From NCBI RefSeq assembly GCF_900232105.1, contig NZ_LT934425.1, positions 3,030,001-3,062,000 on the forward strand: DNA of 32,000 bases. Reading direction: 5' to 3'. Under the pieces are notes generated by a model that saw only the letters and a list, made by a program, of their open reading frames with translations, was not told the origin of the DNA and ran no database searches. This stretch comes from Candidatus Kuenenia stuttgartensis. Lineage in GTDB: Bacteria > Planctomycetota > Brocadiia > Brocadiales > Brocadiaceae. Shown one piece after another: positions 3,466-31,268 of the stretch. Position 1 is the first letter of the stretch. Each line of letters begins with the position of its first letter. The position numbers and the translations under genes are program-made.

Positions 3466-4223
3466 CAAAGGTGATAGTGCGCAAATCTCCACGTGAAATA
3501 GAAATAATGCGAAGTGCTGGAAAGATAACGGCAGAAGCGCTAAGACTGGCGAGAGAACTCACTAAAATAGGTATAACAACAGATTATTTAAATGAAGAAA
3601 TAGAGAAATTCATTATAAGTAAAGATGCGGTACCTGTTTTTAAAGGCTATAGAGGGTTCCCTAAGAGCATATGCACTTCAATAAATGAAGAAGTTGTTCA
3701 TGGTATACCTAGCCAAAGAAGATTAGACGAAGGTGATATTTTAAGCATAGATGTTGGTGTCCGTTATCGTAAATATGTTGCAGATGCTGCACTGACAATA
3801 CCCGTTGGGATTATTTCTGAGGAAGCTGAAAGACTTTTAGATGTGTGTGAAAAATCGTTATATTTGGCCATAAGTGTGATCAAGTCACATGAAAAGTTGT
3901 CATTGATTTCGCGAACAATACAAGAGTTTGTTGAGGAAAACGGTTATTCAGTTGTAAGAGATTATACTGGTCACGGCATTGGTAGAAGCATGCATGAAGA
4001 TCCACAAGTACCTAATTTTGTTAGTAAGTCGCTTTTAGAATATGATGAAATATTAATGCCTGGCGTGACTATTGCAATAGAGCCTATGATTTGTGTTGGA
4101 AAGCCAGGTACGAAGGTGTTGAATAATAGGTGGGTCGTCGTGACAAAAGATGGAGAATTATCAGCCCATTTTGAACATACGGTCGTAGTTACGGAAAATG
4201 GGGCTGAAATTCTAACGCTGTAG
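3432..4223 (+). CDS. map: Methionine aminopeptidase type I (true start probably GTG at 3471)
   Basis: Motifs are KSPREIEIMR.AG, VHGIP, D.G....Y..D...T, HGIG...HE.P and EPM...G. The ORF-track start overlaps adk by 34 nt; the in-frame GTG at 3471 just after the adk stop is more plausible. Confidence 0.92.
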   Translation: MQEAKKDNGRVTKVIVRKSPREIEIMRSAGKITAEALRLARELTKIGITTDYLNEEIEKFIISKDAVPVFKGYRGFPKSICTSINEEVVHGIPSQRRLDEGDILSIDVGVRYRKYVADAALTIPVGIISEEAERLLDVCEKSLYLAISVIKSHEKLSLISRTIQEFVEENGYSVVRDYTGHGIGRSMHEDPQVPNFVSKSLLEYDEILMPGVTIAIEPMICVGKPGTKVLNNRWVVVTKDGELSAHFEHTVVVTENGAEILTL

Positions 4224-4244
4224 AAATTTTTTTATTTATATAAT

Positions 4245-4463
4245 ATGGCAAAAGAAGAACCGATTCGTGTGGAAGCAGTTGTAAAGGAATCTCTTCCCAA
4301 TGCAATGTTTAGGGTAGAGTTGCAAAATGGACATAAGATACTTGCGCATGTTTCTGGTAAAATGCGCATGCACTTTATTAAAATATTGCCTGGTGATAAA
4401 GTGACTGTTGAGATGTCTCCATATGATCTTGATAAAGGTAGGATAATTTATAGGCAAGTTTAA
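4245..4463 (+). CDS. infA: Translation initiation factor IF-1
   Basis: 72-aa ORF with the S1-like IF-1 signature (MAKEE.I...[23 protein letters not shown]...I.ILPGD.V.VE.SPYDL..GRI.YR). Confidence 0.95.
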
Positions 4464-5096: not shown

Positions 5097-5933
5097 ATGG
5101 AAAAAAAAGAAATAATTGCAGCATTAATGACAGCTAATGTGAATTTTTTAAATGCTCTCGGATTGAATATAGATGTTTCAATTAGCAGAGAAAACAAGAA
5201 GTTTAATGAAGTCGTAGGATTCTGTGAACAAGTTATAACAATAATCGAAACCTTCTATAAAGAAAAAAAAGAAATTGTATTTCTTGACTGTTCTTGTGGT
5301 AAATCTTATTTGTCGTTTGTCTTGAATTATGTACTTTCAAATGTCTTTGCTTTAAATACATATTTCTATGCGGTCGATAAGAATACGGCAATAATAGAAA
5401 AATGCGAGAGGATCAATAGCCTTCTCGGATTTAAAAATATGTGTTTTATAAATGCTAAAACAATTGATGTTCTACCAGAAAAATCTGTCGATTTTGTTAT
5501 TGCACTTCATGCTTGTGATGTCGCTACGGATGAAACTATTGCAAAAGCAATTAAAATAAAATCCAGGCATATTCTGGTAGTACCCTGTTGTGAAAATAAT
5601 ATTAGAAATCGGCTTAAAGAAGGACATCCGTTGGTGGATATAACGGATTTTGGCTTATTGAGATATCGGTTTGCAAGTATCCTTACCGAAGCATTAAGAG
5701 CACAGTTTTTAGCTGGAGCAGGTTATAGTGTTAAGCTCGTTGAGATCGTATCCCCAAAATATACGCCAAAAAACCTGATGATCATAGCAAAAAGAAAAAA
5801 AAGAAATAAAAAATACAATATGAATAAGTTTCAGAAATTAGATGAGATGTTTAATACTGACTTTGCCTTGCAAAGTTTTTTTGCCGATACAGGTTCAAAT
5901 CGAAGTGAATGTTATAAGGCAATATGTGGGTGA
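5097..5933 (+). CDS. Class I SAM-dependent methyltransferase (Methyltransf_32/PF13679-like) inserted between rpsM and rpsK
   Basis: 278-aa ORF. FLDCSCGKSYLSFVL matches the D.G.GKGYLS SAM-binding motif, and ALHACDVATDETI is the LHACD.ATD signature I associate with PF13679. It is flanked by AT-rich spacers of 64 and 289 bp. Confidence 0.75.
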   Translation: MEKKEIIAALMTANVNFLNALGLNIDVSISRENKKFNEVVGFCEQVITIIETFYKEKKEIVFLDCSCGKSYLSFVLNYVLSNVFALNTYFYAVDKNTAIIEKCERINSLLGFKNMCFINAKTIDVLPEKSVDFVIALHACDVATDETIAKAIKIKSRHILVVPCCENNIRNRLKEGHPLVDITDFGLLRYRFASILTEALRAQFLAGAGYSVKLVEIVSPKYTPKNLMIIAKRKKRNKKYNMNKFQKLDEMFNTDFALQSFFADTGSNRSECYKAICG

Positions 5934-6222
5934 TATATTGTAATATACTGTAAGGGTTTGCAAACATGGACTTCTATGTTTACTCATAACTTTTATTTTT
6001 ATAACTGGTTATAGCATTTGAAAAATCTTATTTTGTGAACTCCTTGAGTATCGTTAATCTGTTCGTTTTGCGGTATACTGATAAGCTCATAAAAAATATA
6101 ATAGTTTTATAAAAGTGTTTGTATGACATTATAAGCTGTAATTAAAGTTAAAAAAAAGTGTTACTATGTTTTTTGTGTACTAAACACAATAACCAGGATG
6201 ATTTTGATTGATGAGGTGAAAT

Positions 6223-10102: not shown

Positions 10103-10973
10103 CATGTAGTATCGCATGTTAAGCGAGCAAGAAATATCTTGTATTTTATTGAAGTGATATTAAAAATTAAGTTTTGTCTAATTCTAGGTCGATTACTTTT
10201 TTTACTGTAAAAAGTATACTTGTAACAATTTCCTTATCCGCAATCATTCAATTCTCCTTAGGTTTTCCTGCTGTTCCTTTAATACAAATCAAGTAAGCAG
10301 CGCAATTTTTTTGCACGTACAGCAGTGCAGTTTAATTTCTACCTTATAAACAGAAAATCTTTCGTAAAAAAGAAAATATATGACTCCATTGATTTTTTTT
10401 GTTTTTGGAGAATATGCAAGATTTCAACCTTACAATGGCTTGGAATTACGATAACCATTTTTCAGAAAATGGTTAAAAGTTGGGTAAACTAACAAAGACA
10501 GATATGCAAAAAGCTTTTAAATGGACTGCTCTGTTTTACAGATTTTGTGGGGAATTGTTATGGAGAGGCTATTTTATTAAATCTCTCAGAAAAAATATTA
10601 GTATTTTAAGCGCACAATACATTGCAGATATCAATGTTGTAAAATCCAATTAAAATCACTGCATTCATTTGCAGAATGTTTTTAGGTTTGTTTTTCGATA
10701 ACTTGTTTATGCAAAGTAAGTTATTGCAACTAAAGGATTATTTTTCTACCTTGAAATTTTCTTGCCAGTTAAATTTGTTTATGATAGTATTCACGAAAAT
10801 TTGTGTCTTTTAAATACTAAAATATAATGGCTACACTTTTTATAGAAGAAATAGTTTTATGATTTATGTAGTTTATATTTGTTTTATGCGGTTGTTTTTA
10901 AATGAAATATATCCCTATGTTTTGATCTCCGGTAGTTTAATAAATTACGCTGAATAGTTACAAAATATTTATA

Positions 10974-11160
10974 TAGTCAAACAAATAAGGTTTTCGAAAA
11001 ATTTACACACCCCCGGCCCCTCTTTTTAGAGGGGAGAGAAGAAGTCCCCTCTATCAAGAGGGGATTTAGGGGTGTGTTTGATAATATGCCTAGTCAAATA
11101 AATCTGTTTTTTAGAAAGCCATTTTATCGCCAAATCTCTAAAATCATATTTGTTTGGCTA
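10974..11160. mobile_element. MITE copy 1 (187 bp) derived from the IS630-family element at 30729-31855, flanked by TA/TA
   Basis: Terminal inverted repeats are tagtcaaacaaata at the left and tatttgtttggcta at the right. The first ~27 nt are near-identical to the 30729 end of the IS. The interior holds two GC-rich hairpins (cccctc..gagggg). TA sits on both flanks (10972-73 and 11161-62). Confidence 0.7.
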
Positions 11161-11464
11161 TATTAATTACTTGATTTTGATAGAATTTGATTAAAGTTTA
11201 TACCGTCCAAAATATTTTTAAGCGTTCGGGATTATAAAAGCACTTTCATTGTTTAAAGGAAAACGCTTAAGAACAACATTTCGTTGCTGAAAATAAGTCA
11301 TCCCAGCGTTTGGTTCTTTTCTTAGAAAATAATATTATTGCTTTAGTTAGTTAGATTTATTGGTATAATTTTTTTCACAAAGATGATGCTCTTGTGATTA
11401 TGCTATTAAAGAAAATTTGCAAAAAAGGTTGATAGTTTGTTATCAAAATAAGAATAAGATTGTA

Positions 11465-13274: not shown

Positions 13275-16043
13275 ATGGCGCCCAAGTATGTCTATTTCTT
13301 TGGAGAGGGTAAGGCTGATGGGAAAGCGGATATGAAGCATCTGCTTGGTGGTAAAGGGGCAAATTTAGCGGAAATGACTAATATTGGCATCCCTGTTCCC
13401 CCTGGTTTTACTATCACAACGGAGGTTTGTGATGCATATTATAAGAATAAGCAACAGTATCCCAAGGGACTTGACAAAGAGATAGCGCAAAATCTTTCCA
13501 TGCTGGAAAAATTGATGGGAGCAAAGTTAGGCGATTCAAATAATCCTCTGTTGGTTTCCGTTCGAAGTGGCGCTGCGGCATCTATGCCGGGAATGATGGA
13601 TACGGTATTGAATCTTGGTTTAAATCCAGAAACGGTAATGGGGTTGATAAAAAAAACGGGAAATGAGCGTTTTACGTGGGACGCATACCGCAGGTTTATT
13701 TCAATGTTTGGTGATGTAGTTATGGGGATTGAACGACATTATTTCGAAGAAATCCTGGACAAATATAAGAAAAAATCACGGGTCAAAAATGATACAGATT
13801 TGACAACAGAACAATTGAAAAATATTGTAGAAGAGTATAAGGAAATTTATAAAAAAAATGCGCGTGAACCATTTCCGAATAATCCTGCAGAACAACTTCA
13901 TAGAGCGATTCAAGCCGTTTTTGCATCATGGAACAATCCTCGCGCAATAAAATACAGACAGCTTTACGAAATTAAGGGGCTTATTGGTACGGCAGTAAAT
14001 GTTCAGGCGATGGTATTTGGAAATATGGGAGATCATTCTGCCACGGGGGTCTGTTTTACCAGAAATCCCTCAACAGGAGAAAACAAATTTTACGGGGAAT
14101 TTCTTATTAATGCACAGGGAGAAGATGTTGTTGCGGGTATTCGTACGCCAGAGCCGATTGCAAATCTTGAAAAAGAAATGCCAGCGGTCTATAAACAGCT
14201 TTTTAAATATAAGAACATATTAGAGAAGCATTTTAAAGATGTTCAAGATATCGAATTTACTATTCAAGAGAATCGCTTGTTCATGCTGCAAACAAGAAAT
14301 GGAAAAAGAACTGCTCCGGCAGCAATAAAAATTGCAGTTGATATGGTAAAGGAAAAATTAATAGATAAGAAGACGGCTATTTCCAGAATAGACCCTAATC
14401 AACTGGATCAGTTATTGCACCCGACTTTTGATCCTAAGGCAAAAAGAGAAGTAATAGCAGAAGGTCTGCCAGCTTCTCCCGGAGCGGCTACCGGCAGGGT
14501 CGTTTTTAGCGCTGAACAAGCAGAAAGATTAGCCGAGAAAAACGAACAGGTAATTTTAGTCAGGAAAGAAACTTCTCCGGAAGATATTGGCGGAATGCAT
14601 GTTTCTCAAGGAATCCTTACTACCAGCGGCGGTATGACTTCCCACGCTGCTGTGGTTGCGCGAGGAATGGGTAAATGTTGTATCGCTGGTTGTAGTGCTA
14701 TACATGTGGATTATAAAAAGCAGCTTTTTAAGGTAGATGGCAAGGTGATAAGGGAGGGAACGTTCATTTCATTAGATGGCAGTAGCGGTGAGGTAATGAT
14801 GGGGAATGTGGCAACTCTTGTACCCAAACTTAGCGATGATTTTGCCACACTCATGACTTGGGCGGATGAGATAAGAAAGTTGAAAGTGAGAACTAACGCA
14901 GACACTAAGATAGATGCACGGAAAGCTCGCGAGTTTGGCGCTGAAGGCATCGGACTCTGCAGAACAGAACACATGTTTTTTGGCGAGAATAGAATCGATT
15001 TCGTTCGGCAAATGATTCTTTCCGCCCCGGATGTGAAAAATTTGAAAACCAAAATTGCTTATATACAAAAAGAAATAAGTAATGCACAAAACAACAAGAT
15101 AAATGTTCTCAAAAAAGATTTAGCAAGGGCGCAGAATGAAATTAAATATCCCATGACGGCATATATGTCTGCATTGAAGAAATTGCTTCCTATGCAACGC
15201 AGAGACTTTGAACAGATTTTTAAAGAGATGGATGGGCTTCCTGTGACTATCCGTCTTCTGGACCCTCCCCTTCATGAATTTTTGCCTCAAGAGGAAAATA
15301 ATCAAAGAGAAATAGCAAAGCGGATGAAAATTAGTTTTCAGGAAATACAGGAAAAAGTTTCGGCGCTTCACGAACTAAATCCTATGCTTGGCCATAGAGG
15401 ATGCAGGCTTGGTATTACCTATCCCGAAATATATGAGATGCAGGTACAGGCAATTATCGAGGCTGCATGTAACATGAAAAAAAAGGGTATCATCATTTAT
15501 CCGGAAATAATGTTGCCCCTTATTAGTACTGAAAAAGAATTAATTATCTTAAAAGAGTTGATTCAAAAAAATGCAAAAGAAATAATGGAGAAAAAAGGCG
15601 TAAAGGTAAATTACCTTATAGGAACAATGATCGAATTACCACGGGCAGCTTTAATAGCAGATAATATTGCCAGACATGCTGAGTTCTTTTCCTTTGGGAC
15701 GAATGACTTAACGCAGATGACATTTGGTTTTAGCCGTGATGATGTTGGATCTTTCGTTCCGGAGTATATTGATAATGAAATATTAGAGAAGGACCCTTTT
15801 CAGGTTTTGGATCAGGAGGGCGTTGGGAAGTTGATTCAAATAGGTATTAATGGAGGGAGAAGCACGAGAAAAGAATTAAAAATTGGAATTTGCGGTGAAC
15901 ACGGGGGAAATCCTCAAACAGTTTCCTTTTGCCATGGGATAGGTATGGATTACGTAAGTTGCTCTCCTTTCAGGGTGCCAATAGCCCGTCTTGCCGCTGC
16001 ACATGCAGCACTTGAGCAACCTGTATCGCGTGCGACAATTTAA
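13275..16043 (+). CDS. ppdK: Pyruvate, phosphate dikinase
   Basis: 922-aa ORF. It has LGGKGANLAEM, the phospho-His loop GGMTSHAAVVARGMG, then GIGLCRTEHMFF, FSFGTNDLTQ and CGEHGG. GAAAGGAG is the RBS. Confidence 0.97.
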   Translation: MAPKYVYFFGEGKADGKADMKHLLGGKGANLAEMTNIGIPVPPGFTITTEVCDAYYKNKQQYPKGLDKEIAQNLSMLEKLMGAKLGDSNNPLLVSVRSGAAASMPGMMDTVLNLGLNPETVMGLIKKTGNERFTWDAYRRFISMFGDVVMGIERHYFEEILDKYKKKSRVKNDTDLTTEQLKNIVEEYKEIYKKNAREPFPNNPAEQLHRAIQAVFASWNNPRAIKYRQLYEIKGLIGTAVNVQAMVFGNMGDHSATGVCFTRNPSTGENKFYGEFLINAQGEDVVAGIRTPEPIANLEKEMPAVYKQLFKYKNILEKHFKDVQDIEFTIQENRLFMLQTRNGKRTAPAAIKIAVDMVKEKLIDKKTAISRIDPNQLDQLLHPTFDPKAKREVIAEGLPASPGAATGRVVFSAEQAERLAEKNEQVILVRKETSPEDIGGMHVSQGILTTSGGMTSHAAVVARGMGKCCIAGCSAIHVDYKKQLFKVDGKVIREGTFISLDGSSGEVMMGNVATLVPKLSDDFATLMTWADEIRKLKVRTNADTKIDARKAREFGAEGIGLCRTEHMFFGENRIDFVRQMILSAPDVKNLKTKIAYIQKEISNAQNNKINVLKKDLARAQNEIKYPMTAYMSALKKLLPMQRRDFEQIFKEMDGLPVTIRLLDPPLHEFLPQEENNQREIAKRMKISFQEIQEKVSALHELNPMLGHRGCRLGITYPEIYEMQVQAIIEAACNMKKKGIIIYPEIMLPLISTEKELIILKELIQKNAKEIMEKKGVKVNYLIGTMIELPRAALIADNIARHAEFFSFGTNDLTQMTFGFSRDDVGSFVPEYIDNEILEKDPFQVLDQEGVGKLIQIGINGGRSTRKELKIGICGEHGGNPQTVSFCHGIGMDYVSCSPFRVPIARLAAAHAALEQPVSRATI

Positions 16044-16064
16044 TCAGAAAGATTAATTTGGAAT

Positions 16065-16155
16065 ATGCTTATGCATTTAACTCCTAACTAAACGAGTCAG
16101 AGAATACAAAAATACCCTTCTTAAGGGCACTATTAGGAGTCAAATGCATAAGCAT
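16065..16155. repeat. 91-bp imperfect palindrome (23-bp arms, 1 mismatch) downstream of ppdK
   Basis: The left arm atgcttatgcatttaactcctaa (16065-16087) pairs with the right arm ttaggagtcaaatgcataagcat (16133-16155). The 45-nt spacer contains a small ccctt/aaggg hairpin. Confidence 0.6.
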
Positions 16156-16177
16156 TTTTAGAATAATCGTGACACAG

Positions 16178-16212
16178 AAGGCATCCTCATTTTAGAAGGA
16201 TGCCTTTTGTGT
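16178..16212 (+). terminator. Rho-independent terminator candidate for ppdK
   Basis: A perfect 10-bp stem, aaggcatcct (16178-87) with aggatgcctt (16197-206), has a 9-nt loop and is followed by TTTTGTGTT. Confidence 0.65.
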
Positions 16213-16279
16213 TATGATGGAAAAAATACCTGTTAATGCATGAAATCCGGTTCTTTATGTATATATTGAATATAACAGT

Positions 16280-17053
16280 ATGATTGAAATATATAAAAAA
16301 TTGCCAAAGACAAATTGTGGTGAATGTGGAGATGCAACTTGTACCGCGTTTGCACTTAAAGTAATAAACTCTCAACGTAGAATACAAGATTGTCCATATG
16401 TTGCAAACAAAGACAGCAAACTGGCATTAAATAAACCCGTAGCTACCATGGACGATAATTACAGTCGTGTAAGTTATGAATTAGAAGCTGTGGCGAAATG
16501 TGTGAATTTTAAGGATGCAAGCGCTGCAATTGGCGGCGGGTATGAGATTAAGGATGGCGAAGAGAGAATAACGCTTAAAATGATAAATAAGCCATATGAG
16601 ATTCGCAGAAAAGGTTTATATGAAAATGATACATATTGTATTGATTCGTGGTCCAAAATTATCATTTACGATTATGTGCGCAGGCAGGGCCGCAGATCTT
16701 TAACCGCTGAATGGGTCACATTGGGATATTTTACAAATACCGCTTCACACGTTAAAGCCTTTCAGCGGAACGCCGAAGAGAAGATTGCCACAAAATTCAA
16801 TGATAATAAACAAGGATTGATAATTCGATGTAAAGAATTGGGTGGAGTTGCTGCACAAGGGCAAATGAGGGCCGATTATATTTATCAATTTGGTTTGTTG
16901 CCAAGGATACCCTTGTATATGTGTTTTTGGGAAGCAGACGATGAATTTTCGGCTAGTTGTAAATTGTTTCTTGATAGTAGTGCAGAAGATTATATCGATA
17001 TAGAATATCTGGCGTATCTCGTTGAAAGATTTGTGGAAATTTTTGTTCACTAA
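16280..17053 (+). CDS. DUF3786-like protein with an N-terminal putative [4Fe-4S] domain (CFeSP/RnfB-type)
   Basis: The N-terminus LPKTNCGECGDATCTAFALKV......IQDCPYV is the C-X2-C-X4-C-X16-C motif seen at the N-terminus of corrinoid Fe-S protein large subunits and RnfB. The remainder (LPRIPLYMCFW.ADDEF) resembles DUF3786 from memory. Confidence 0.7.
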   Translation: MIEIYKKLPKTNCGECGDATCTAFALKVINSQRRIQDCPYVANKDSKLALNKPVATMDDNYSRVSYELEAVAKCVNFKDASAAIGGGYEIKDGEERITLKMINKPYEIRRKGLYENDTYCIDSWSKIIIYDYVRRQGRRSLTAEWVTLGYFTNTASHVKAFQRNAEEKIATKFNDNKQGLIIRCKELGGVAAQGQMRADYIYQFGLLPRIPLYMCFWEADDEFSASCKLFLDSSAEDYIDIEYLAYLVERFVEIFVH

Positions 17054-17101
17054 CAAGACAACTTTTTTCCCTACAAGAAGAAAAAGGTAAAATACCCTCT
17101 T

Positions 17102-17252
17102 GTAACAGGTTCGTTTTTTTTAAAAGTCGGGGCAAAGCATTTTCTATAAATTGCCATAAATGTGCGCATACTCAAACAGGCAAATGCTTCGCCTCGACAC
17201 TATGCGGCAAAACACCGATATTATTGGAGTTTTTCAAAAAACTAAAGTGTTA
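17102..17252. mobile_element. MITE family 2, copy 1 (diverged; about 151 bp)
   Basis: It aligns along its length with 25162-25300. Shared blocks are gtaaca..tttttt..aaaagt.gggc.aagcatt, aaattg.cataaa.tgtg..cata.c.caaac.ggcaaatgctt and attattgga.tttttcaaaaaactaaagtg.ta. Confidence 0.6.
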
Positions 17253-17412
17253 GTGCGCCAGGCGAAGCTTGTAAAAGCCAGTTGGTTGAAAAGCCAACAT
17301 GAATGTTATTTTTGGTCGCGCCTTAGTGAATCTGTTTGAAGAGCCGTGTGCAGGAATACTGCATGCACGGTTCTATGTGAGGCGGCGGGAGTAATCCTGC
17401 CGTCTACACGAC
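17253..17412 (+). ncRNA. Miniature group II intron-like element: 5' GUGCG, two small hairpins, canonical domain V and domain VI
   Basis: GTGCGCC lies at 17253. There is a GCUU-GUAA-AAGC hairpin at 17267-78 and a gttgg/ccaac hairpin at 17281-98. D5 at 17341-73 is GAGCCGUGUGCAGGAAUACUGCAUGCACGGUUC, with the AGC triad and a 2-nt bulge. D6 at 17377-409 has a GUAA loop and a bulged A at 17406. Confidence 0.55.
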
Positions 17413-17605
17413 CTCCGCCTTAATTTTTTTTTGCCTTATAAAAAACAAATCAAGCAGTGTCCCTCTGTAAAATAGAGGCAATGCAATGCACCGCACTGCA
17501 GCACCGAACAATTTCCCTTCATCTCATGTTCAGAAAAATAACACATCTATTAATGAAGAGATTTAAAGTTGATAATAGATGAAAAATAAGATAGTATTCC
17601 CAAAG

Positions 17606-17683
<78 letters not shown>

Positions 17684-18165
17684 ATAATGACAACTACTTA
17701 CGACTACCATATACTTCCTGAATACTGAAAATTGTATACTTTTTGTATACTTCATTTTTTATTCAGTACTTTATCAAGTATATCAACAGCTTTTATTTTA
17801 TGACTTGGTGAAAGGTGTGCATAAAATGACTAAAACATAAAATTTAGCCACAGGTTGCACTACCACATATAATCTGAAAATGCAAATCAAGCATTCTTTA
17901 CCCACGGCAACGTCAAAGTCACCCTACGAAAGACGCGGATCAAGGATTTGTGCCAAAAGCTCCCGTCAATAAGTGGAGAAGAAGATAAAAAACAATAGAA
18001 TTTTCATATAAATGGGCAAAAATGAGTAAAACAAGCAAAATAGAGCGGGAGTATCCCTGTAGTAATGAAAGAGAGAGAGAAAAAAAATAAAGTGTTTTTT
18101 TTGTTCTCTACATGTTACATGCGAAGCATTTGAAGTGAAAGAAAAGGTCTTGCCGCAAAATTTCT

Positions 18166-18655
18166 GAGCGTCTTTGTTCGCAGCCTATAATGCTGCATTA
18201 CTAAATGGGTGAAAGTCCCATATCGGAAATTGGTTGTTTGACCGATTAGCTATATCTGACATATTGTAAAGGTAACTTGCAATATGAAAGCTCAGAAGTA
18301 AAAGTCCTTGCAAGCGAAGGGCAAACAAGTTTACGGGTCGTACCATAAAGGGAATATTGCAACCTCGTTACGCAGACCACCATAGAACTTGCGAAGTGGC
18401 GGCGAAACAGATACTAAACCACTGCAAAGATGGTGAAAGTTAGTATTACTGATGAAGCAACAACCAAAAGCAATCGGTAAATCTGTCGGGGTATGGATGG
18501 CGACACGTAAACAAAGTAGTGCAGAGTAAATTAGGGAAAATCTTGCTATCAGCCAATACAAGTCCGTACGGCAAAGACCTGTTAGACGAAGTATAATAAG
18601 GTAATGGGAGATAGCGAGCTGGTAGGTTGGAGGCCATTAGCCTCCAACCCCCACT
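18166..18655 (+). mobile_element. 5' ribozyme portion (domain I, probably part of domain II) of a + strand ORF-less group II intron; right boundary approximate
   Basis: It starts GAGCG at 18166, a variant of GUGYG. GGGUGAAAGUCCC lies at 18207-19, as in domain I of the O. iheyensis-type introns I recall. There are many GNRA-capped helices in the + sense (gcGAAGgg, gcGAAGtg, ggcGAAAc, gGTGAAAGt). cuuuguu (18172-78) can pair with aacaaag (~18502-08). Confidence 0.5.
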
Positions 18656-20580
18656 CGTCGCCAGATACTTTGGACAACGTGACAAAGCATCCTTTTTAAA
18701 CCATACGTCTTTCTCGTAGTTAGCGACCCCGACGTGTTGCTCTATAACAGAGAAAAGTCAAACATCATGCTTTAGCACACGCCTTAAGAAATTCTCTTTC
18801 GAATGAGAGTAACCCCATTTTAAAGAATCGGTGAACAGGGAAACGCTTGTTGTCTGTTCTCCATTTTCTTGAGAACTTGAAACATCTCAGTCTCATGCGT
18901 ACCCAACAGTCTAATGAGCGATATACCTTTTGTACATTGCCCAGCCGAAAATAGTTGACATGCCCACGAATTACGGGGTTTAATGTATCAACGATGGCTT
19001 GCAGATTGACGCCCTGTGTACGTCTGGTGATGTCTCTGATGTTGTTCCTTCGGCAGGCTCAGGACAGGCTCTTGAGTTTGTTCAGTGATTTCGTGCTTAT
19101 ACCCTTATACTTGCCCTTGAAATCGTATCCGAGAAACCTGAAACCTCTTTTGAAGTTGGTGAGCTTGGTTTTATCCTCGCTCAGCTTCATTCCAAGTTTC
19201 CCTGCAATGATTTCTTTGACATAGCTGAGGGCGGCTGGGAGTTCATCTTTTGTTTTAGTCATGACAACGAAATCATCGGCGTATCGGACAAACTTATATC
19301 CAGCCTTTTCAAGTTCCTTGTCGATGATGTTACCGATAAGGTTTGCAAGCAAAGGGGAAATTACACCTCCTTGCGGAGTGCCTTTGTTTGTCTCATGCAC
19401 GATGCCGTCCTCCATGACCCCTGCCTTGAGCATGTTCTCAATACTGTTCAAAACCCATCCATCAGCAATTTTCTCACGTAAGGAGTCCATAATAAGCTTA
19501 TGGGGTATGGTGTCATAGAATGCCATTATATCGGCATCAAGGACGCTGGTATACCCTTCCTGCTTATACTGTTCAAGCCGTTTGATAGCATCGTGACAGC
19601 ATCGTGACAGCATCTGTCAGGGCGAAATCCAAAGCTGTTATCTGAGAATCCTTTCTCAAATATTGGCTCTATGATTTGCCTGAACGCCTGCTGTACAATC
19701 CTGTCCTTAACAATGGGAATGCCAAGAGGTCTCTTGTCATGCCTGCCTTTGGGGATGTATACCCGCAGGACAGGCGCAGGGTTGTATATGGCAGTCTTGA
19801 GTTCCTGATGGATACTCATGATATTCACATCAAGATTGGACTCAAATTGCTTAATACTTACCCTGTCAAGACCAGCTTTGCCTTTATTCTTCTTTACGTG
19901 TTTGAAAGCAGCATAAAGGTTTTTCAGACTAAACACCTTGTCTCTTAATGAATGATACTTAAGCATCTCTCGATATATTCCTTTCGATTGATTACGGATA
20001 ATAGATTTGTCAATCGTGTTTCCTGGGTACGGATTCTCCCAAACATAGGCAAAACAAGAGAGGCTCTTGTTACTGTTTACCTACGCAAAAGAGTTTCTTT
20101 TCTCATTGAACGTATTCAATCTGCCACTTTCATCAATTCCACTACGGTTATGCCCCTTTCATTTCCGATTCACACCGGAAACTATTATGAGCAATGCTGA
20201 CGACTTCAAAGATAGACTTGTGAGAGAAGCTTGTCTATCACCATCTCATACAGCTCGGACTTCGGAATTTCCTTATACCTTGCTGTTAGGGAATTTTGCC
20301 CAAGGCGTAAGTCCTCCCCCGGTCATATGGATTACCCCTTTTCCCTTCGTGATGTATGTTCAAACGCATTAACCAGAGATGGTTTTACTTAATCTGTTTA
20401 TCCATCTCCAACAAAGGACATTGTCAGTGCTTCGCTGAGAAATGGCAGTTGGCACGGAATAACACGCCACACTCATACACCCCAAAAGGTCGTCTGTACC
20501 TCGTAACTCCGTCATACCCCTCACGGGTATATGCTATCTTTCTACGCATACGGATTGCTCCATTGTGTGCGCATAGGCAC
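18656..20580 (-). mobile_element. Group II intron on the - strand (domains I-III at ~20580-19967, IEP in domain IV, degenerate 3' end); boundaries approximate
   Basis: The - strand of 19967-20580 is rich in GNRA-capped helices (cagcGAAGcac, cacGAAGgg, ccGAAGtcc, ggaaatGAAAgggg). Its 5' end is near gtgcctAUGCGCAC (20574-20580). An RT/maturase reading frame lies inside. Downstream of the ORF there is only a non-canonical D5-like helix (18698-18743), preceded by a ucuguu linker. Confidence 0.65.
18765..19966 (-). pseudogene. Group II intron reverse transcriptase/maturase (RT domains 0-7 plus X, no endonuclease domain), disrupted
   Basis: N-terminal motifs are GLDRVSIKQFE and RVYIPKGRHDKRPLGIPIVKDRIVQQA. 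They are followed by SFGFRPDRCCHDA, LDADIMAFYDTIPH, GTPQGGVISPLLAN, FVRYADDFVVM, and the X domain IRDITRRTQG...LNPVIRGHVNYFRLGN. The frame is broken by an 11-bp tandem duplication (19588-19609) and by an in-frame TGA (19059-19061). Confidence 0.85.
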
Positions 20581-20923
20581 AAACTTCTCTACGAGGATTA
20601 GGCTCGCAGAGGTGGTATTTTCAACCACTCAGGTATTCCATACTTCAAGGCACTCAGAAGCTCAGATGAGACCGTAGTAGCGTTTGACTTTGAGGGACAA
20701 CATAACCCACAAAAGAGCAAAGGGTCTCTGGACAGGATTTGCTACCAAATAATAGTGAAATCAAATGCCGAAATTAGTAGGCTACAGTAACTAAAAGGCG
20801 GTAGCTATACTCTCCTATAAGATGGAGAAATGCAGGTGAATGTGGGACTTGCACTTAATCCTAAATATCTTTATCGAAGGTTGAGAGCGGATATTCTGTT
20901 TGAAGCCGTACTGGGGAAAACCC
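20581..20923 (+). mobile_element. Continuation of the + strand group II intron: D2/D3-like region, short ORF-less D4, linker and 5' half of domain V
   Basis: A D3-like cucagaagcucagaugagaCCGUAGUAGcg lies at ~20651-20682 (compare CGUAGUAG.CUGAGAAGG in Ll.LtrB D3). The linker auucuguuugaag matches the one before D5 of the mini element. AGCCGUACUGGGGAAAACCC is at 20904-20923. Confidence 0.5.
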
Positions 20924-22307
20924 CATAAGCGCTAACTTGTTTTATTGACAAATTTTATTCATCATGGTATTTTTATATTAATTATCCCGCTAATCACTCT
21001 ATAGGAGGATAAAGCCATGATGAGAGAAGATTGGGATCTTCTAAGAACTTTCTTCCCAAACGATTGGAAAAGTTTAGCCGTTGATACAAATGCTTTAAAA
21101 GGCTTGCGCAAGGATAAATCTGAAGAAAAGCTTCTTCGAACATTATTAATTCATTTAGGATGTGGCTATTCATTGCGTGAAACAGTAGTTCGAGCCAAGC
21201 GTGCTAACTTAGCAGATTTATCCGATGTTGCCTTATTAAAGCGATTAAAAAAGAGCAAAGAATGGCTATATAAATTATGTTTATCTTTATTCCGTGAGCG
21301 TGGCCTCCAAATTAATAAACGGAATAATTTTCATCTTCGCTTATTTGATGCAACAACAGTAAAGGAACCTGGGAAAACAGGAAGTCTTTGGCGCATTCAT
21401 TATAGTATTGAGGTTCCTTCATTATCTTGCGATTTCTTTAAACTTACGGGAACTGAAGGAGAAGGCACAGGAGAATCTTTTCGGCAGTTTCCGATGAAAA
21501 AAGATGATTATATTATAGCTGACAGAGGTTACTGTACTGGCCAAGGAATTCATCATGCAACAAGGAAAGGCGCTTATCTTAGCGTTAGAGTTAATTCGCA
21601 ATCTCTACGGATATTCGGCGAAGAAAAGAAACCCTTTCCTTTATTGAAAGAAATCCAATATTTAAAAAGACCCCTTGCTATAAAATCATGGAACGTTTTT
21701 ATTCCAAACGTTGATAATACTGAATATGTCAAAGGTCGTCTTTGTATAATACGCAAAACAGAAGAAGCCATTAAAATAGCTCATAAAAAACTTAAAAGAC
21801 ATGCAAGCAAAAAGGGCATTGAACTAAAACCGGAGACCCTTATTTATGCCAAGTACGTAATAGTATTCACAACGTTTCCTGAAAATCAATTTACCGCTTT
21901 TGATATCTTAGAATGGTATCGAGTTCGATGGCAAATTGAACTGGTCTTTAAAAGATTTAAACAAATAGCACAATTTGGACACTTACCTAAATACGATGAT
22001 GATAGCTCAAAAGCTTGGCTTTATGGCAAACTATTCGTTGCTCTTTTGACAGAAAAACTAATAGATTTTGCTACGTCTTTTTCCCCCTGGGGATACTTCA
22101 TTGTCAAGCAAGAAGACTAAAAGCAAATGGCGTGAATTTGCTTTTATGCTTAATCAAGTAAAACGGGCTATAGAACCAGCGTTATCATTACAGGAAGTTC
22201 TTAAGTGCTGGAATGACATTGCTTGTTCTTTAGCAGAAAATACAAGAATCCGAAAAACACAGATATCAAAATACTTCGAGCATACCTAAAACAAGTTAGC
22301 GCTTATG
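20924..22307 (+). mobile_element. IS4-family insertion sequence (1384 bp) with 20-bp perfect terminal inverted repeats and an 11-bp target-site duplication
   Basis: IRL cataagcgctaacttgtttt is at 20924-43, and IRR aaaacaagttagcgcttatg ends at 22307. The direct repeat ggggaaaaccc occurs at 20913-23 and 22308-18. Confidence 0.88.
21017..22120 (+). CDS. IS4-family DDE transposase; last ~60 codons continue in another frame (22068-22289)
   Basis: 367-aa ORF with IIADRGY, a D-rich region and RWQIELVFKRFKQ (the Y-R-E-K region). The second ORF (SKWREFAFMLNQVK...) runs to 15 nt before IRR. The frame change falls around the C5/G4 runs at 22083-22092. Confidence 0.85.
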   Translation: MMREDWDLLRTFFPNDWKSLAVDTNALKGLRKDKSEEKLLRTLLIHLGCGYSLRETVVRAKRANLADLSDVALLKRLKKSKEWLYKLCLSLFRERGLQINKRNNFHLRLFDATTVKEPGKTGSLWRIHYSIEVPSLSCDFFKLTGTEGEGTGESFRQFPMKKDDYIIADRGYCTGQGIHHATRKGAYLSVRVNSQSLRIFGEEKKPFPLLKEIQYLKRPLAIKSWNVFIPNVDNTEYVKGRLCIIRKTEEAIKIAHKKLKRHASKKGIELKPETLIYAKYVIVFTTFPENQFTAFDILEWYRVRWQIELVFKRFKQIAQFGHLPKYDDDSSKAWLYGKLFVALLTEKLIDFATSFSPWGYFIVKQED

Positions 22308-22318
22308 GGGGAAAACCC

Positions 22319-22376
22319 ACCGTACGGAATTTTAGAGAGGGAACAGGAAACATACTAAAAAGAGATTGAGTAAATA
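22319..22376 (+). mobile_element. 3' half of domain V plus a degenerate domain VI region of the + strand group II intron; 3' boundary uncertain
   Basis: After removing the IS and one TSD copy, the sequence reads AGCCGUACUGGGGAAAACCCACCGUACGGAAUU. This is a D5-shaped hairpin with UGGG/CCCA upper stem, CC bulge and CCGUAC/GUACGG lower stem. The base reads GAA where the usual GUU partner of AGC would be. I could not draw a convincing D6 stem. Confidence 0.45.
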
Positions 22377-22612
22377 CCTCCGCTTCAGTATGAAAGAGGT
22401 TTCAAACGTTTAGCAATGCGCCTGTTTTCTACTCGGTAATATTTGTTACCTGTGGAAAATGAAAAAAACCAACCACTAGTATAGCGTTTCGGCAAAACAT
22501 CGACATATTGTTTTCCATTATGAACTACGACTGAACAGTCTTAAATCTTGTATTTACAAAGGATTGGATTTTCAATGCCCTCATAGTAATGATGCTATTT
22601 TATGTGTATATT

Positions 22613-22870
22613 TTAATGAAACGTTATACTAGATTCCCCAAAGAAGCCATTGCCCTTTGGGGCATTTTTTGTGCGTGTTTGAGAATTATCTTCACGGGAA
22701 GCGGTATCACGCACATAATGAAGTCCATTTTCTATTGACCAGTGTCCGCGAGAAGACTTAAGAATGGTTTTGGGACTTGCTTTTTGTTGTGTCAGGCTGG
22801 TAATACCGTAAACAATTTCCTCGGTTTTTTTGTCGGTCTTGACTTCTGTAAATATTCCATGAATGCAAAA
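22613..22870 (-). pseudogene. C-terminal remnant of an ISAs1-family-like transposase
   Basis: The - strand frame reads IHGIFTEVKTDKKTEEIVYGITSLTQQKASPKTILKSSRGHWSIENGLHYVRDTASREDNSQTRTKNAPKGNGFF and stops at 22613-15. The Y.I.SL.....L......HWSIEN.LH.V.D..F.ED....R..NAP pattern is the ISAs1-type C-terminus. There is no start codon and no N-terminal part. Confidence 0.6.
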
Positions 22871-23659
22871 TACCTGGCGCGAAAATAAGACTACAAAAAA
22901 TATTTTAAGTACAGATACTACAACACGATATGGTTATAAGCCCATTTTCATCGTTTCAGGGTGTTGCAAATGAAACATGATGACTAGTGACTTATTTTGT
23001 CATTACAAGGGTATCAGCTTGTCATTGCGAGGGTCTTTTCCGAAGCAATCTCATAAACCGTCATAGAGGTCCTTCCATCCTGCATTCATTCATTCCATTA
23101 ATTAATTCTATTTTTTTTAGCCCTTGAGCCACCCTTAATTCGCTTCTCCCGCGATATGGCGTTTCTTACGTCATGAAATATCTCGTAGTATACTGAACTG
23201 CTTCATATTGTTTTTGTCTTTGTGAAACAGGATTATTGAAATAGGAAACGAGATTAAGTTTGTCATGTATTAGTGTGTTATTGTGATGATTATGCATTTG
23301 TGATATTCTTTCTGAATATTGATAATCCTGCCAGATACCTTCTATTTGAAAGGTATTGGCGCTTATGAATTGGTGGATATTTTGAATTATAGCGCACTTA
23401 TAATCACCATTCAAGCATTTTGTCCATCATATTATCACCCTAAAATCCCAAAATTTGTTAAAGTTCCCGAATAGTGCAAAAATGTCCTGATCTTAAAATG
23501 TATTTTGTTGCTACTAACAGGCAAGCAAGTAGACTATTTTGTAATATAGGTTTACAAGGTAAGGGCTAGATAAATTCGTCGCTCTGCGGCCTTCAAACAC
23601 AAAAGACTTTAAGGGGTGTATTATGATGGTTTATGTGTGTAAAAATAGGTGTTTAAGCA

Positions 23660-23898
23660 AAGAGATCGCAATCAGTATGTATGGTAGAGGGCGGGCATTT
23701 GATAACATTTTTACGGAACGTCTTTGGAGGAGTGTGAAGTACGGAGAGGTTTATCTCAAAGAATATCAGGCTTGTAGTGAAGCACGTGAGGGTTTGGAGA
23801 AGTATTTTACATTTTATAATATTAGGAGGTATTACCAATCACTGGAATATAAAATACCGTATGAAGTTCATTTTGGAGTTTCTTCAGTGAGCAAATGA
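23660..23898 (+). pseudogene. C-terminal remnant of an IS3-family transposase (integrase-core tail)
   Basis: ISMYGRGRAFDNIFTERLWRSVKYGEVYLKEYQACSEAREGLEKYFTFYNIRRYYQSLEYKIPYEV matches the conserved IS3 OrfB tail (D..G.A.DN.F.ER.WRSLKYE.VYL..Y......A...I..Y...YN..RPHQ.L.Y.TP.EV). No upstream catalytic region is present. Confidence 0.7.
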
Positions 23899-24159
23899 GG
23901 AAAAGGAGCGGTGGGGCGAAGGAAAATTGCAGAGTGTGCAGAAGGGTAACGGAAGGAGCCTGCTGCACACTGTAGATTGATGAATTAATGCATCTAAATA
24001 TTAATAGTAAATGGTCTTGACAAACCAGTCCACCTTATAAAAAAACTTTGACAGCATAGTGATATAACACTGCAGCCGCAGAAACGGCTTGTTTCCAAAC
24101 TAATCGCTGGTACGCATGGAAATAAGTGCTAATGTACTAATGATAATTTAAGTAAGATG

Positions 24160-25059
24160 TTAATTTGTTTTCCTTTTTTTGGATTTTCTAAATCTTCCAA
24201 TATTCAAATAAACGCCTATATTGGCATTCTTGTCTTTATAGGGAGAGATTTTGCCTTCAGCGGAAGTAAACAATGTGGTAACCCCAGGTCCGTGGCCTGC
24301 TGTTATACAATTTGTGTGAACAACAACCCCTACTGTGATAGCCCCGGTTTTATATATTCTTCCATAGGAATGGTCTGCATCCATAATCGCAACTATATCT
24401 CCCAACCGTAAGGTATCCAGGTTATGTTTTTCTATTGTTTGTTTGTCGAACAATTGTATATCATAATCTCCCCGATAACAGTGTTGTGAACCAAGCCCTG
24501 ATCCCATAATTGCTGCCGGTATAGTGTGTGTTACTGGAATTTGCATCACCCCTTTTGTCTTGTCATATTTTATTGGCAATGTTTCTAGAAGATGAGGGGA
24601 GAGATTGATGGTTTTTATTTGCGGACAATTTGTAAAAGAAAAGCCCAAACCGATACAGCGAATAAGTATTTTGTCGCCTATTACGAGTTTTTCAATAGTT
24701 TTATCATCAAAATCTACCAGCACGTTTTCTATGCCGCCATGTTTTCCCGTAACGATGCCTGTATCTCCCTTTGCGTCTCCGGACACAACTTTTGCGCTAT
24801 TTCCGATGCAAGCCAATAAATTGAGTGCACCATTTTCTTCCTTGTCTTTATTCCTGATGGATACACAGGGCTCAACATGGTCAGCTTCCCATTGTATCGC
24901 ACTATCCCCTATTTTTACATTATAAGTAATTCCGCCTATACCTGGCAATATGGCAGGTATCCCTTCGGGAGATATGCTGTATGCCTTTGCGCCTCCTGAT
25001 GGACTGGAGACTTCCCCCAATGCAGATATTTCAACAAGACGATTCCCATTTGTTTCCAT
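24160..25059 (-). CDS. Conserved hypothetical protein (possibly DUF4438 family; assignment from memory only)
   Basis: 299-aa ORF with AGGAGA as RBS and uniform coding look. Gly-rich beta-type motifs are present (LPGIGGITYNVKIGD, GDAKGDTGIVTGKHGG, GHGPGVTTL). I recognise no catalytic motif. Confidence 0.7.
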   Translation of the reverse strand: METNGNRLVEISALGEVSSPSGGAKAYSISPEGIPAILPGIGGITYNVKIGDSAIQWEADHVEPCVSIRNKDKEENGALNLLACIGNSAKVVSGDAKGDTGIVTGKHGGIENVLVDFDDKTIEKLVIGDKILIRCIGLGFSFTNCPQIKTINLSPHLLETLPIKYDKTKGVMQIPVTHTIPAAIMGSGLGSQHCYRGDYDIQLFDKQTIEKHNLDTLRLGDIVAIMDADHSYGRIYKTGAITVGVVVHTNCITAGHGPGVTTLFTSAEGKISPYKDKNANIGVYLNIGRFRKSKKRKTN

Positions 25060-25161
25060 AGTATGTCTTTTTTTCTCCTCTAATACTGAGGTTTAACGAA
25101 TCTTCACTAATATGCAGGCGTAATCTAGCATAGGGTACGGAATAATGGCAATACAAAATTT

Positions 25162-25300
25162 GTAACACTTTAGTTTTTTGAAAAAGTAGGGGGCGAAGCA
25201 TTTGATGTAAATTGTCATAAAATGTGTTCATACCCAAACGGGCAAATGCTTAGTCCCTACTTTACGATTATTGGAATTTTTCAAAAAACTAAAGTGCTAC
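25162..25300. mobile_element. MITE family 2, copy 2 (139 bp) with 24-bp terminal inverted repeats
   Basis: gtaacactttagttttttgaaaaa (25162-85) matches tttttcaaaaaactaaagtgctac (25277-300) at 23 of 24 positions. An internal pair aagcattt/aaatgctt extends the hairpin. The element sits in the divergent intergenic region between 24160-25059(-) and 25501(+). Confidence 0.65.
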
Positions 25301-25399
25301 CAAGATTTACATTGATATTTTTCGCGCACTCTCCGCCATAGTTGTTTTTGGGATAAAGGAATTGTTTAAGTAAGGGAAACCGAATAATATATTTTTTTT

Positions 25400-25429
25400 T
25401 TGCAATTTCAAACGTATTATTGTTATAAA
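25400..25429 (+). promoter_or_regulatory. Candidate sigma70-type promoter for the RCC1-repeat gene
   Basis: TTGCAA (25400-05), an 18-nt spacer and TATAAA (25424-29), 72 nt upstream of the ATG at 25501. The call rests on motifs only, in AT-rich DNA. Confidence 0.35.
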
Positions 25430-25500
25430 CTATACACATATTAAATTTGATGTGTTTTTATTACGATTAATACTAAAACAAGTACAGGCAAATAGATACG

Positions 25501-30245: not shown

Positions 30246-30546
30246 GAGTACCCTCCCTTTCTCCGAAAAAAAGGGATCATATCATTTTCCACCCACGTAT
30301 GGCAATGCCTTCTCTCTATATACACCTATCTCTACACAATTCAATAGCTTACATACTTTTTGACTAAAAAGGCACTTCCTGGGTTCTGAATCTGAAGAAT
30401 CAATTCAATAAACTTGACTATAGAACTACAGTTGCAAAACATACCAACAAACCGCCCACATCACCTTAGATTAGGCTGGGGTTTTAAAAGGCAAAAATCC
30501 CACGGCATTCATTTTTATCCACATTTATTTTCACACTTTTGACATA

Positions 30547-30704
30547 TAGTCAAACAAATAAGGTTTTCGAAAAATTTACACCTCCCGTCCCTTCTATAAA
30601 GAGGGAATTAAGGGGCGTGCTTGTATAGTATGCTTAGTCAAATAAATCTGTTTTTTAGAAAGCCATTTTATTGCCAAATTCCTAAAATCATATTTGTTTG
30701 GCTA
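30547..30704. mobile_element. MITE copy 2 (158 bp) of the IS630-derived family, flanked by TA/TA
   Basis: It has the same termini as 10974-11160 (tagtcaaacaaataaggttttcgaaaaatttacac ... catatttgtttggcta) but only one internal GC hairpin. TA lies at 30545-46 and 30705-06. It is 24 bp from the full-length IS. Confidence 0.7.
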
Positions 30705-30740
30705 TATTCCATTTTTTCCCTTAGAATATAGTCAAACAAA

Positions 30741-31268
30741 TCAGGTTTTCGAAATTTGCTCGCCAATAATTTGAAAATTTTCAGTTAAAAGAGTAGACAA
30801 TTCATCTGTATACTCGTTAATATTTTTGAAAAAACTTAAACATTTGTTTTTAAACTTCTCATAAGTATCATAATACTTGTTATACAATATTTTTTTGCGA
30901 AAGAATTTCCATAATCTTTCAATGAGATTTAAATTGGGCGAATAGGAAGGGAGAAATTTGATCTTTATTCTCGAATTTGCAAGGTATTCTTTGACCAACT
31001 TAGACCTGTAATATTTAGCATTATCAGAGATTATGTAAATAGTACCGGCTTGAGCATACCTTGACTCTATTTCATGGAAAAGCTTTATTGTTGATTGAGC
31101 ATTGATGCTTTCATCTTCCCGGATTGTTACTTCAAAGGTTTCTATGTCAATAGCACCGTTTAAATTTATTCTTTTCCTGCCGGTATTAGAGGGTATTTCC
31201 TTCTTTTTGCCTTTCTCTATCCAGCAATATGCAGACGTAGAATTATGCTGTGGATGAACTCCATCCAT
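30741..31268 (-). pseudogene. IS630-family transposase, DDE catalytic part (frame open upstream to ~31364)
   Basis: ILFMDGVHPQHN carries the first D, and IYIISDNAKYYRS carries the second D. SYSPNLNLIERLWKF carries the third acidic residue, D or E (I could not tell which). The frame upstream of M reads FQAKQNPEKQKEFIENYKQLKEEKAPGDKILF. Confidence 0.8.

Follow-up and report, generated by a model that had tools for sequence, protein, structure and literature searches.

A stretch of 32,000 nucleotides from Candidatus Kuenenia stuttgartensis (contig NZ_LT934425.1, positions 3,030,001 to 3,062,000), referred to here as the window and used for all coordinates given without another source, contains an intergenic cluster of three mobile elements. 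The outermost is a group II intron on the plus strand (18166-22437) that has no open reading frame (ORF) and is 839 nt long when uninterrupted. It is split by a 2039-nt group II intron on the minus strand (18617-20655) that encodes a reverse transcriptase (RT), and again by a 1384-bp insertion sequence (IS) of the IS4 family on the plus strand (20924-22307). The two introns are called here the plus intron and the minus intron. Drawing on element boundaries, empty sites, homology, and covariation, we consider it very likely that these are stacked elements, in which the ORF-less plus intron is the oldest and was invaded by the minus intron and by the IS. An earlier note, made from the letters of the window, had placed the cluster at 18166-22376; the start stands, and the end lies at 22437.

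Evidence for this layering comes from other strains. Eight strain contigs, all overlapping at least part of the locus, were retrieved by means of the DUF3786 protein encoded at 16280-17053. One of them, L010 (GCA_020063645.1), is without both insertions. It matches the window over 16000-18618, 20656-20923, and 22309-22437, and it carries the uninterrupted plus intron as 839 nt at its positions 5126-5964. Its first junction reads ...GAUAGCGAG followed directly by AAGCUCAGAUGAGACCGUAGUAG..., and at the second junction a single GGGAAAACCC lies in an intact hairpin. An uninterrupted copy is present in a natural strain and is collinear across both junctions. The plus intron came first, because it is found in every strain contig that extends far enough and because L010 has neither insertion. 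L004 and L007 (GCA_900232175.1; 100% identical to the window across 16000-25500) carry both the minus intron and the IS. L003, L005, and L006 keep the minus intron, and the domain V (D5) half of the plus intron has been lost from them through rearrangement. Their homology to the window ends exactly at the 5' end of the minus intron (~14365, equivalent to window 20656), and past the break lies what is left of an ISAzo13-type transposase gene (PF07592), its 3' part. A break at this position indicates recombination between intron copies, apparently two copies of the minus intron. No haplotype with only one of the two inserted elements was present among the strain contigs. Because L010 has neither, L004 and L007 have both, and the other three are rearranged, the order of the minus intron and the IS is not readable. 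The chronology of three invasions proposed earlier therefore stands as regards the outer intron being oldest, but its statement that the IS came later does not follow from the strain haplotypes.

Could L010 instead be a derived form that lost the minus intron and the IS precisely, in which case it would carry no chronology? Recombination at intron copies does occur in this region, as the breaks at the 5' end of the minus intron in L003, L005, and L006 and at the 3' end of the plus intron in L010 illustrate. However, both L010 junctions are base-exact, with one copy of the 11-bp IS target and a restored D5 hairpin. Given what is established about both element types, two independent precise losses would also be far less parsimonious than two insertions. 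We consider such losses extremely improbable and take L010 to represent the state before the two insertions.

The minus intron reads 5'-GAGUGCC...CCUACCAGCU-3'. At its site L010 is shorter by exactly 2039 nt, with a junction ambiguity of 2 nt. Relatives of the intron begin GUGUG, GCGUG, or GAGUG (GNGUG), and these 5' ends resolve the ambiguity such that the intron runs from 20655 to 18617. Its 3' end, ...CCUACCAGCU, recurs in relatives with unrelated flanks, and a Ca. Brocadia genome (L001) has at 2298-4314 an intact copy that is 86% identical over the full length, aligned with window 20664-18617. The earlier note had described about 1.9 kb of minus-strand intron with an RT/maturase, and its description was sound apart from the size. 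It had also entertained 18166-18760 as the 3' region of this intron, which is true from 18617 on, but 18166-18616 is plus intron. The point of insertion lies between ...GAUAGCG and AGAAGCUCAGAUGAGACCGUAGUAG, at the boundary formed by domain II (D2), the junction between domains II and III (J2/3), and domain III (D3). In other words, an invasion on the opposite strand was correctly recognized, but the site is not clearly inside D2 as had been proposed. Five independent copies of the minus lineage have YUGAG 4-6 nt upstream of the junction in their 5' exons, and this shared sequence suggests that the lineage may follow a common target rule. The DNA target of the window copy likewise has YUGAG at this distance. 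No terminator or attC-type hairpin was seen in the 5' exon of the minus intron. In L261 (~110-150), the 5' end of a relative is found twice, once as a stretch of 18 nt directly ahead of the intron itself (GCGUGCCUUGAAGUAUGG followed by GUGUGCCUUGAAGUAUGG), and it looks as if one copy had inserted into the first 18 nt of another.

The intron-encoded protein (IEP) of the minus intron is specified by a broken gene at 18765-19966 (minus strand; RVT_1, TIGR04416) with RT and X/maturase domains and no endonuclease domain. Two RT ORF pieces, 19526-19966 and 19059-19613, match RVT_1. An 11-bp tandem duplication at 19587-19608 shifts the frame of the RT, and an in-frame stop at 19059-19061 separates the RT and X domains, past which the X/maturase domain is still readable. 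The gene is thus broken, as the earlier note had it. When one 11-bp repeat is removed and the stop is read through, the repaired IEP has 396 aa and scores 392.7 bits with TIGR04416 (cut-off 300 bits). It is 87-93% identical to intact IEPs of 382-388 aa from Ca. Brocadia and anammox metagenomes, homologs carry GIIM, and the closest solved structures are RTs of class IIC introns, the GsI-IIC RT being the best PDB match (E 8e-72). The strain contigs also tell how the damage is distributed. The in-frame stop is common to strains, and the ORFs of L004 and L006 end at the same place. The 11-bp duplication is found only in the window and L007 and not in L001, L004, or L006; where the window has it, L004 and L006 have a 298-aa ORF. 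A different frameshift is present in the IEP gene of L003 and L005.

Downstream of the IEP gene, the minus intron ends in a D5 of unusual shape (18657-18727, minus strand; defined by RNAalifold and pair counts) and a canonical domain VI (D6) at 18620-18653, in which the A at 18623 is bulged and which is followed by the 3' tail GCU (18619-18617). The D5 is branched. Its base helix GUCGC/GCGAC holds a CGC triad, and above it come four pairs, the last of them a conserved U.G, then an AY bulge (AU in the window), an upper helix, and a pentaloop, which is GAAAR or UAACK in the lineage and GAAAG in the window. The branch is an extra hairpin that interrupts the 3' strand where the base helix gives way to the remainder of D5. 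RNAalifold arrived unaided at this D5/D6 architecture from ten diverse copies whose IEPs are 45-87% identical to the window protein, and 18 of its 32 pairs are compensatory. In D6 (helix 4), both sides change in 7 of 14 pairs. The pair counts, made in the same ten sequences, give 94.4% paired, a value reached by none of 500 shuffles. Since the branched D5 is kept in intact relatives, its non-canonical form is not the damage for which it had been taken. The sequence GAGCAAC upstream of D5 (18734-18745) is complementary to a conserved GUUGUC loop of the inserted hairpin (18684-18689, minus strand), and the corresponding segments in the distant L265 lineage are GAUU and AAUC. A tertiary pairing between the two could exist, although the branched D5 explains the data without it.

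The IS lies in D5 of the plus intron, as the earlier note had stated. Its transposase ORF (21017-22120, plus strand) matches NF033592 (IS4 family) at 163 bits against a cut-off of 115 and also matches DDE_Tnp_1. Its terminal inverted repeats (~20924-20944 and 22287-22307) are perfect over 24 nt when bases shared with the target duplication are included, ~21 nt of which are inside the IS. The element is flanked by an 11-bp target duplication, GGGGAAAACCC, at 20913-20923 and 22308-22318, of which L010 has a single copy. This sequence is the upper helix and loop of D5. Identical 1384-bp copies with 11-bp duplications are found at nine of ten other Kuenenia loci (L011-L020), the copy in L014 spanning 1402 bp in a motif scan. 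Duplications of 11 bp flank 13 of 13 IS copies examined, with targets rich in G and C at both ends and mostly GGG-N5-CCC or variants of it, a marked preference that GGGGAAAACCC fits and that explains the presence of the IS in D5. The occurrence of an identical transposase in many contigs suggests recent activity of the IS.

What is the plus intron into which both elements inserted? Its 5' segment (18166-18616; L010 5126-5576, collinear) begins with GAGCG and contains domain I and D2, up to J2/3; D1-D2 together take up ~450 nt. The core of domain I matches RF02003 (group-II-D1D4-4) at 18203-18348 with 71.5 bits (E 6e-14; gathering score 49 bits), the match recurs in every strain contig carrying the region, and a GGGUGAAAGUCCC motif stands ~40 nt into the intron. 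This supports the earlier recognition of a domain I on the plus strand, with the correction that the segment ends at 18616 and not at ~18655, because 18617-18655 is domain VI of the minus intron. The middle segment (20656-20923; L010 5577-5844, collinear) holds the rest of J2/3, D3 (CCGUAGUAG), a short ORF-less domain IV, and, from 20903, the 5' strand and loop of D5. The content assigned earlier to 20581-20923 was therefore right, but 20581-20655 belongs to the minus intron. The 3' segment (22319-22437) comprises the 3' strand of D5 (22319-22333, one nucleotide longer than the 22319-22332 proposed earlier), D6 (22335-22434), and the end of the intron, ...CUACUCGGU, at 22437. No plus-strand ORF of at least 50 aa is present within the 839 nt, which makes the intron ORF-less. 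The 5' segment is collinear with environmental homologs. For domain III, a covariance model gave only a sub-threshold match, RF01998 across the restored junction at 19.3 bits against a gathering score of 35; motifs of the middle segment are common to metagenome homologs and to L022, a deltaproteobacterial metagenome-assembled genome (MAG). A BLAST comparison between the plus and minus intron RNAs found no similarity, and the two are therefore unrelated lineages, as had been supposed. The segment GGGAAU at 18351-18356 was tried as exon-binding site 1 pairing with AUUUCU in the 5' exon, and was rejected because it is conserved in relatives with different 5' exons.

The ends of the plus intron were assigned as follows. 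GAGCG differs from the group II consensus GUGYG at position 2, and the nearest relatives start with GUGNC, offset by 1 nt. A scan of a genome collection with the pattern GAGCG...GGGTGAAAGTCCC...TAGC, in which the matches listed end ahead of Kuenenia, found among those matches many RF02003-type introns beginning with GAGCG behind varied upstream exons. Some of them encode RTs and have canonical D5/D6 ~1.9-2.0 kb downstream. Judging from these introns, GAGCG appears to be a genuine 5' end in RF02003-type introns. At the other end, the homology between the window and L010 stops at 22437, and 97 distinct homologs have in common a terminal motif GCGCC(N7-10)CUACYCGRY, beyond which their flanks are unrelated. 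The Kuenenia sequence GCGCCUGUUUUCUACUCGGU fits this motif, which places the 3' end at 22437. The window and L010 also diverge exactly there (22437/22438 against L010 5964/5965), the window continuing into IS3-type debris and L010 into the region of an AAA_22 gene; this hints at a second copy of the plus intron or at a break-point at its end.

The plus intron also has a D5 of its own kind, AAGC-CGUAC-UGGG-GAAAA-CCCA-CC-GUACG-G. It resembles a canonical D5 in having an AGC triad at the 5' base and a 2-nt bulge (CC) in the 3' strand, and it stands just upstream of D6. It departs from one in two ways. The UU partners of the triad are preceded by an inserted AA, and the loop is a GAAAA pentaloop instead of GNRA. 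The pairing of the triad with U residues past the AA insertion is put forward here as a proposed model. D6 forms a helix of 13 bp, and its bulged A, at 22431, is 6 nt away from the 3' end. When the uninterrupted 839-nt RNA of L010 was folded, the minimum free energy had a z-score of -4.18 and the fold independently drew the same D5 and D6. The folding of the excised intron, which the earlier note had recommended, is in this way provided by the natural form. A metagenome search with the D5 pattern AAGCCGTAC-N11-15-CCGTACGGAATTTT returned at least 120 matches, and the D5 hairpin is kept in 98 distinct copies. The same D5, including GGAAUUUU, and the same GGAA base recur in at least 120 environmental copies and in L022. 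Across D5 and D6, 99.1% of the cells in the 98 distinct sequences are paired, with none of 500 shuffles and no slid register near this value, the invariance of the lower D5 helix and of the AAUUUU tail being partly by construction because the search pattern fixed both. D6 shows strong covariation: in the same sequences, both sides change in 10 of the 13 pairs, and 98.5% are paired. A base reading GAA instead of GUU had been taken as damage to D5, and D6 had been called not drawable. Neither view survives the comparison; the unusual D5 and D6 are traits conserved in the lineage and do not reflect damage. The more general claim that all three layers are damaged is likewise not borne out, since only the IEP is demonstrably broken and both D5s and D6 are conserved in their lineages.

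Homologs of the plus intron are found well beyond Kuenenia. L022, which came from the genome-collection scan, carries an ORF-less homolog that is collinear with the plus intron and 88% identical in the D5 region, the GGAAUUUUAG tail included, and full-length collinear homologs of ~840 nt occur in, for example, L161, L238, L142, and L165. A tblastn search found no RT between the 5' end and D5 of the homologs. Many of the units lie in or next to RT-encoding introns on the same strand. In L146, L207, L162, and L258, the unit is located between, or just before, a host domain I (RF02005 or RF02003) and the host RT, and in some loci it lies within ~10 nt of the host domain I. In L147 and L254, it splits the ORF of a host RT, and the host has its own D5/D6 recognized by RF00029. 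Taken together, the alignments describe the plus lineage as one that is, on sequence criteria, ORF-less, widespread, often nested in RT-encoding introns, and missed by RF00029. Some 934-nt GAGCG elements of acidobacterial genomes ("type 2") were first read as containing an RT; a likelier reading is that they have no ORF and are nested upstream of the RT of a host. They were set aside because the strict D5 pattern is absent from them. A small RF01999-type intron occurs twice in an alphaproteobacterial contig, L076 (1-1509 and 4735-5334), and one copy holds a ~913-nt insertion that starts with GAGCG and matches RF02003. This looks like a further case of an ORF-less intron lying within an intron; the same 5' flank is also present in Bradyrhizobium erythrophlei (L091).

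The proximity to RTs raises the question of whether the hairpin is a domain V at all. The ~840-nt units could be accessory 5' or internal modules of RT introns, the Kuenenia unit being a module that became detached. Of the 12 metagenome loci with an RT match, 10 do have the RT gene on the strand of the hairpin and downstream of it, and the end of the unit is followed within ~10 nt by the start of an RF02005 domain I in several loci. However, a unit that splits the RT ORF of a host with its own RF00029 D5/D6, as in L147 and L254, points to insertion and not to a modular design. Many long contigs (for example, L152, L176, L184, L198, and L199) carry the unit with no RT nearby. Furthermore, the unit has its own 5' end, a hairpin with AGC triad and 2-nt bulge, and a D6 whose bulged A stands 6 nt from a sharp 3' boundary. 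We therefore regard detached modules as improbable and continue to treat the unit as an intron.

Several points weigh against this interpretation of the locus. RF00029 misses D5 of the plus intron at E<=10 even in the uninterrupted L010 copy, and gives no gathering-level match at the D5 hairpin in 20 homologous loci; it also has no match on the minus strand of the window, nor in the intact L001 and L002 copies at E<=1. Covariation lends no support to the pairing proposed at the AA bulge of the plus D5, since the bases in question were fixed by the search pattern. The branched D5 was derived from the very ten sequences in which its pairs were then counted, and its base helix is almost invariant, with one compensatory change. 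The 5' boundary of the plus intron is placed by homology, to ~1 nt, as there is no empty site for this intron itself. In the ~150 kb of Kuenenia DNA searched, neither a second copy of the plus intron nor an intact cognate IEP was found. Splicing and ribozyme activity of both lineages are predictions from comparative data. One reading of these points is that the plus element is a decayed relic or a 5' fragment, whose odd D5 base and missing D6 would be mutational damage. The silence of RF00029 on both D5 and D6 in the uninterrupted copy, the sub-threshold RF01998 match, and the single Kuenenia copy would fit such a relic. Decay, however, would not leave the same D5 in at least 120 environmental copies and L022, a D6 that covaries strongly and ends at a shared motif before unrelated flanks, and 839 nt that are collinear throughout with homologs of equal length. 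A relic is therefore very improbable, and an intron lineage with its own D5 and D6 remains the better description.

How might the stack have been assembled? The first layer is an 839-nt ORF-less intron from a lineage with an RF02003-type domain I, a GAGCG or GUGNC end, a variant D5, and a long D6. Such an intron would move or splice efficiently only with an RT/maturase supplied in trans. The second layer came when the 2039-nt endonuclease-less RT intron moved into the D2/D3 boundary on the opposite strand, probably by retrotransposition through reverse splicing into DNA with priming at a replication fork. Its IEP decayed later, by the stop shared among strains and by the strain-limited 11-bp duplication noted in the window and L007. 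In the third layer, an IS4-family element that appears to be currently active inserted into GGGGAAAACCC. As a consequence, the plus intron of the window strain is predicted to be unable to fold or splice, and the minus intron would be unable to make its own protein. The intron copies further serve as substrates for recombination, and strain contigs diverge exactly at intron ends. The earlier term "twintron-like" is apt as a description of the topology, but not in a functional sense, as the RT ORF, D5, and D6 of the inner intron all read on the minus strand. Because it lies on the opposite strand, the inner intron is not removable from a transcript of the outer one.

Nested group II introns, bacterial ORF-less introns that depend on IEPs acting in trans, and IS insertions into other elements have all been documented (PMC4424553, PMC2882425, PMC4649490). 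The nesting at this locus is therefore a new instance of a known phenomenon, and the opposite-strand arrangement has no special mechanistic meaning. As described by Dai and Zimmerly (2003) and summarized in PMC4424553, group II introns of Methanosarcina acetivorans, including ORF-less ones, lie inside others in non-coding DNA, and bacterial twintrons of Thermosynechococcus (PMC2882425) and Trichodesmium (PMC4649490) are likewise group II introns within group II introns. As at the Kuenenia locus, the copies in these systems recombine, and ORF-less members presumably depend on IEPs made elsewhere. The Kuenenia case differs from them in that the inner intron is on the opposite strand and so permits no sequential splicing, it is the outer intron that has no ORF, a third layer is added by an IS, and the two introns are unrelated, so that homing into a related intron is not what happened. 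ORF-less introns of Methanosarcina have been described as homing into intron sequences (PMC4424553). The nesting of the plus lineage in metagenome RT introns resembles this pattern.

Each layer can also be compared with the family to which it is closest. The plus intron shares domain I and the GGGUGAAAGUCCC motif with RF02003 introns, RT-encoding types of which also start with GAGCG, but it differs from them in having no ORF, a larger D1-D2, and a D5 with a pentaloop and an inserted AA. The triad of IIC introns is CGC. The minus intron resembles IIC introns such as O.i.I1 of Oceanobacillus iheyensis in this triad, in its endonuclease-less IEP, and in its PDB matches; unlike them, it has a branched D5, and a 5' exon hairpin of terminator or attC type was not seen. 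A Kuenenia stuttgartiensis group II intron, c-Ku.st.I1, has been catalogued as unclassified or class F (PMC3552965, PMC4244168). It is from the same organism, and its endonuclease-less RT/maturase near classes C, F, and g1 is consistent with the minus IEP, the comparison being one of descriptions. The IS is typical of IS4-family elements in its DDE transposase, inverted repeats, and 11-bp duplication, and stands out only for a target preference that matches the sequence of the D5 hairpin.

The surroundings of the cluster include the remains of further mobile elements. The gene order is PPDK (13275-16043), the DUF3786 gene, a canonical group II D5/D6 fragment, and tRNA-Pro(GGG) (17607-17683), 483 nt 3' of which the nested cluster starts; past the cluster lie an IS3-type fragment (23623-23898) and DUF4438. 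The D5/D6 fragment (17339-17412, plus strand; RF00029, 43.7 bits) is ~195 nt upstream of tRNA-Pro and has no domain I ahead of it. Probably it is what remains of the 3' end of a third intron. The metagenome contig L009 stops at 17341, which suggests that the sequence of the fragment is repeated in the genome. A GUGCG at 17161 was considered as the start of a third mini intron ending at this RF00029 match, and was rejected because 17100-17252 is an intergenic dispersed repeat of ~150 nt with a second copy at 25160-25299. The two copies are 73.5% identical, and near the second there are internal inverted repeats (25140-25185 with 25277-25323); the repeat could be MITE-like (miniature inverted-repeat transposable element) or REP-like (repetitive extragenic palindrome). 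A second repeat pair of ~195 nt (10971-11164 and 30544-30708) is 77% identical, and a 29-nt near-exact copy lies at 30726-30754.

No other part of a group II intron is as conserved as domain V, which is homologous to the catalytic stem of spliceosomal U6. It is a tentative idea, in our view doubtful but worth stating, that both introns at this locus stand for lineages with a conserved D5 that departs from the canonical 34-nt hairpin, the plus lineage by AA opposite the AGC triad and the minus lineage by a hairpin above the CGC triad. A literature search, incomplete for subscription papers, found no account of these D5 variants or of the ORF-less lineage. Surveys of ORF-less introns depend on D5 motifs or RF00029 (PMC4424553, PMC8919778), and a 2015 review stated that introns with an unusual domain V would be overlooked. 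If the idea is correct, D5-based surveys would have missed such lineages.

As a strain-resolved case of mobile elements colonizing each other, with recombination break-points in a plastic anammox genome, the locus is useful and ordinary. Less expected, and of moderate interest, is that two D5 variants are conserved and that the ORF-less lineage is so abundant. Two conserved and covarying D5 variants that are missed by current tools mean that censuses of introns, above all those of ORF-less ones, are incomplete. With the variants, nature may also offer a test of how much rearrangement around its triad the catalytic stem tolerates before it stops working.

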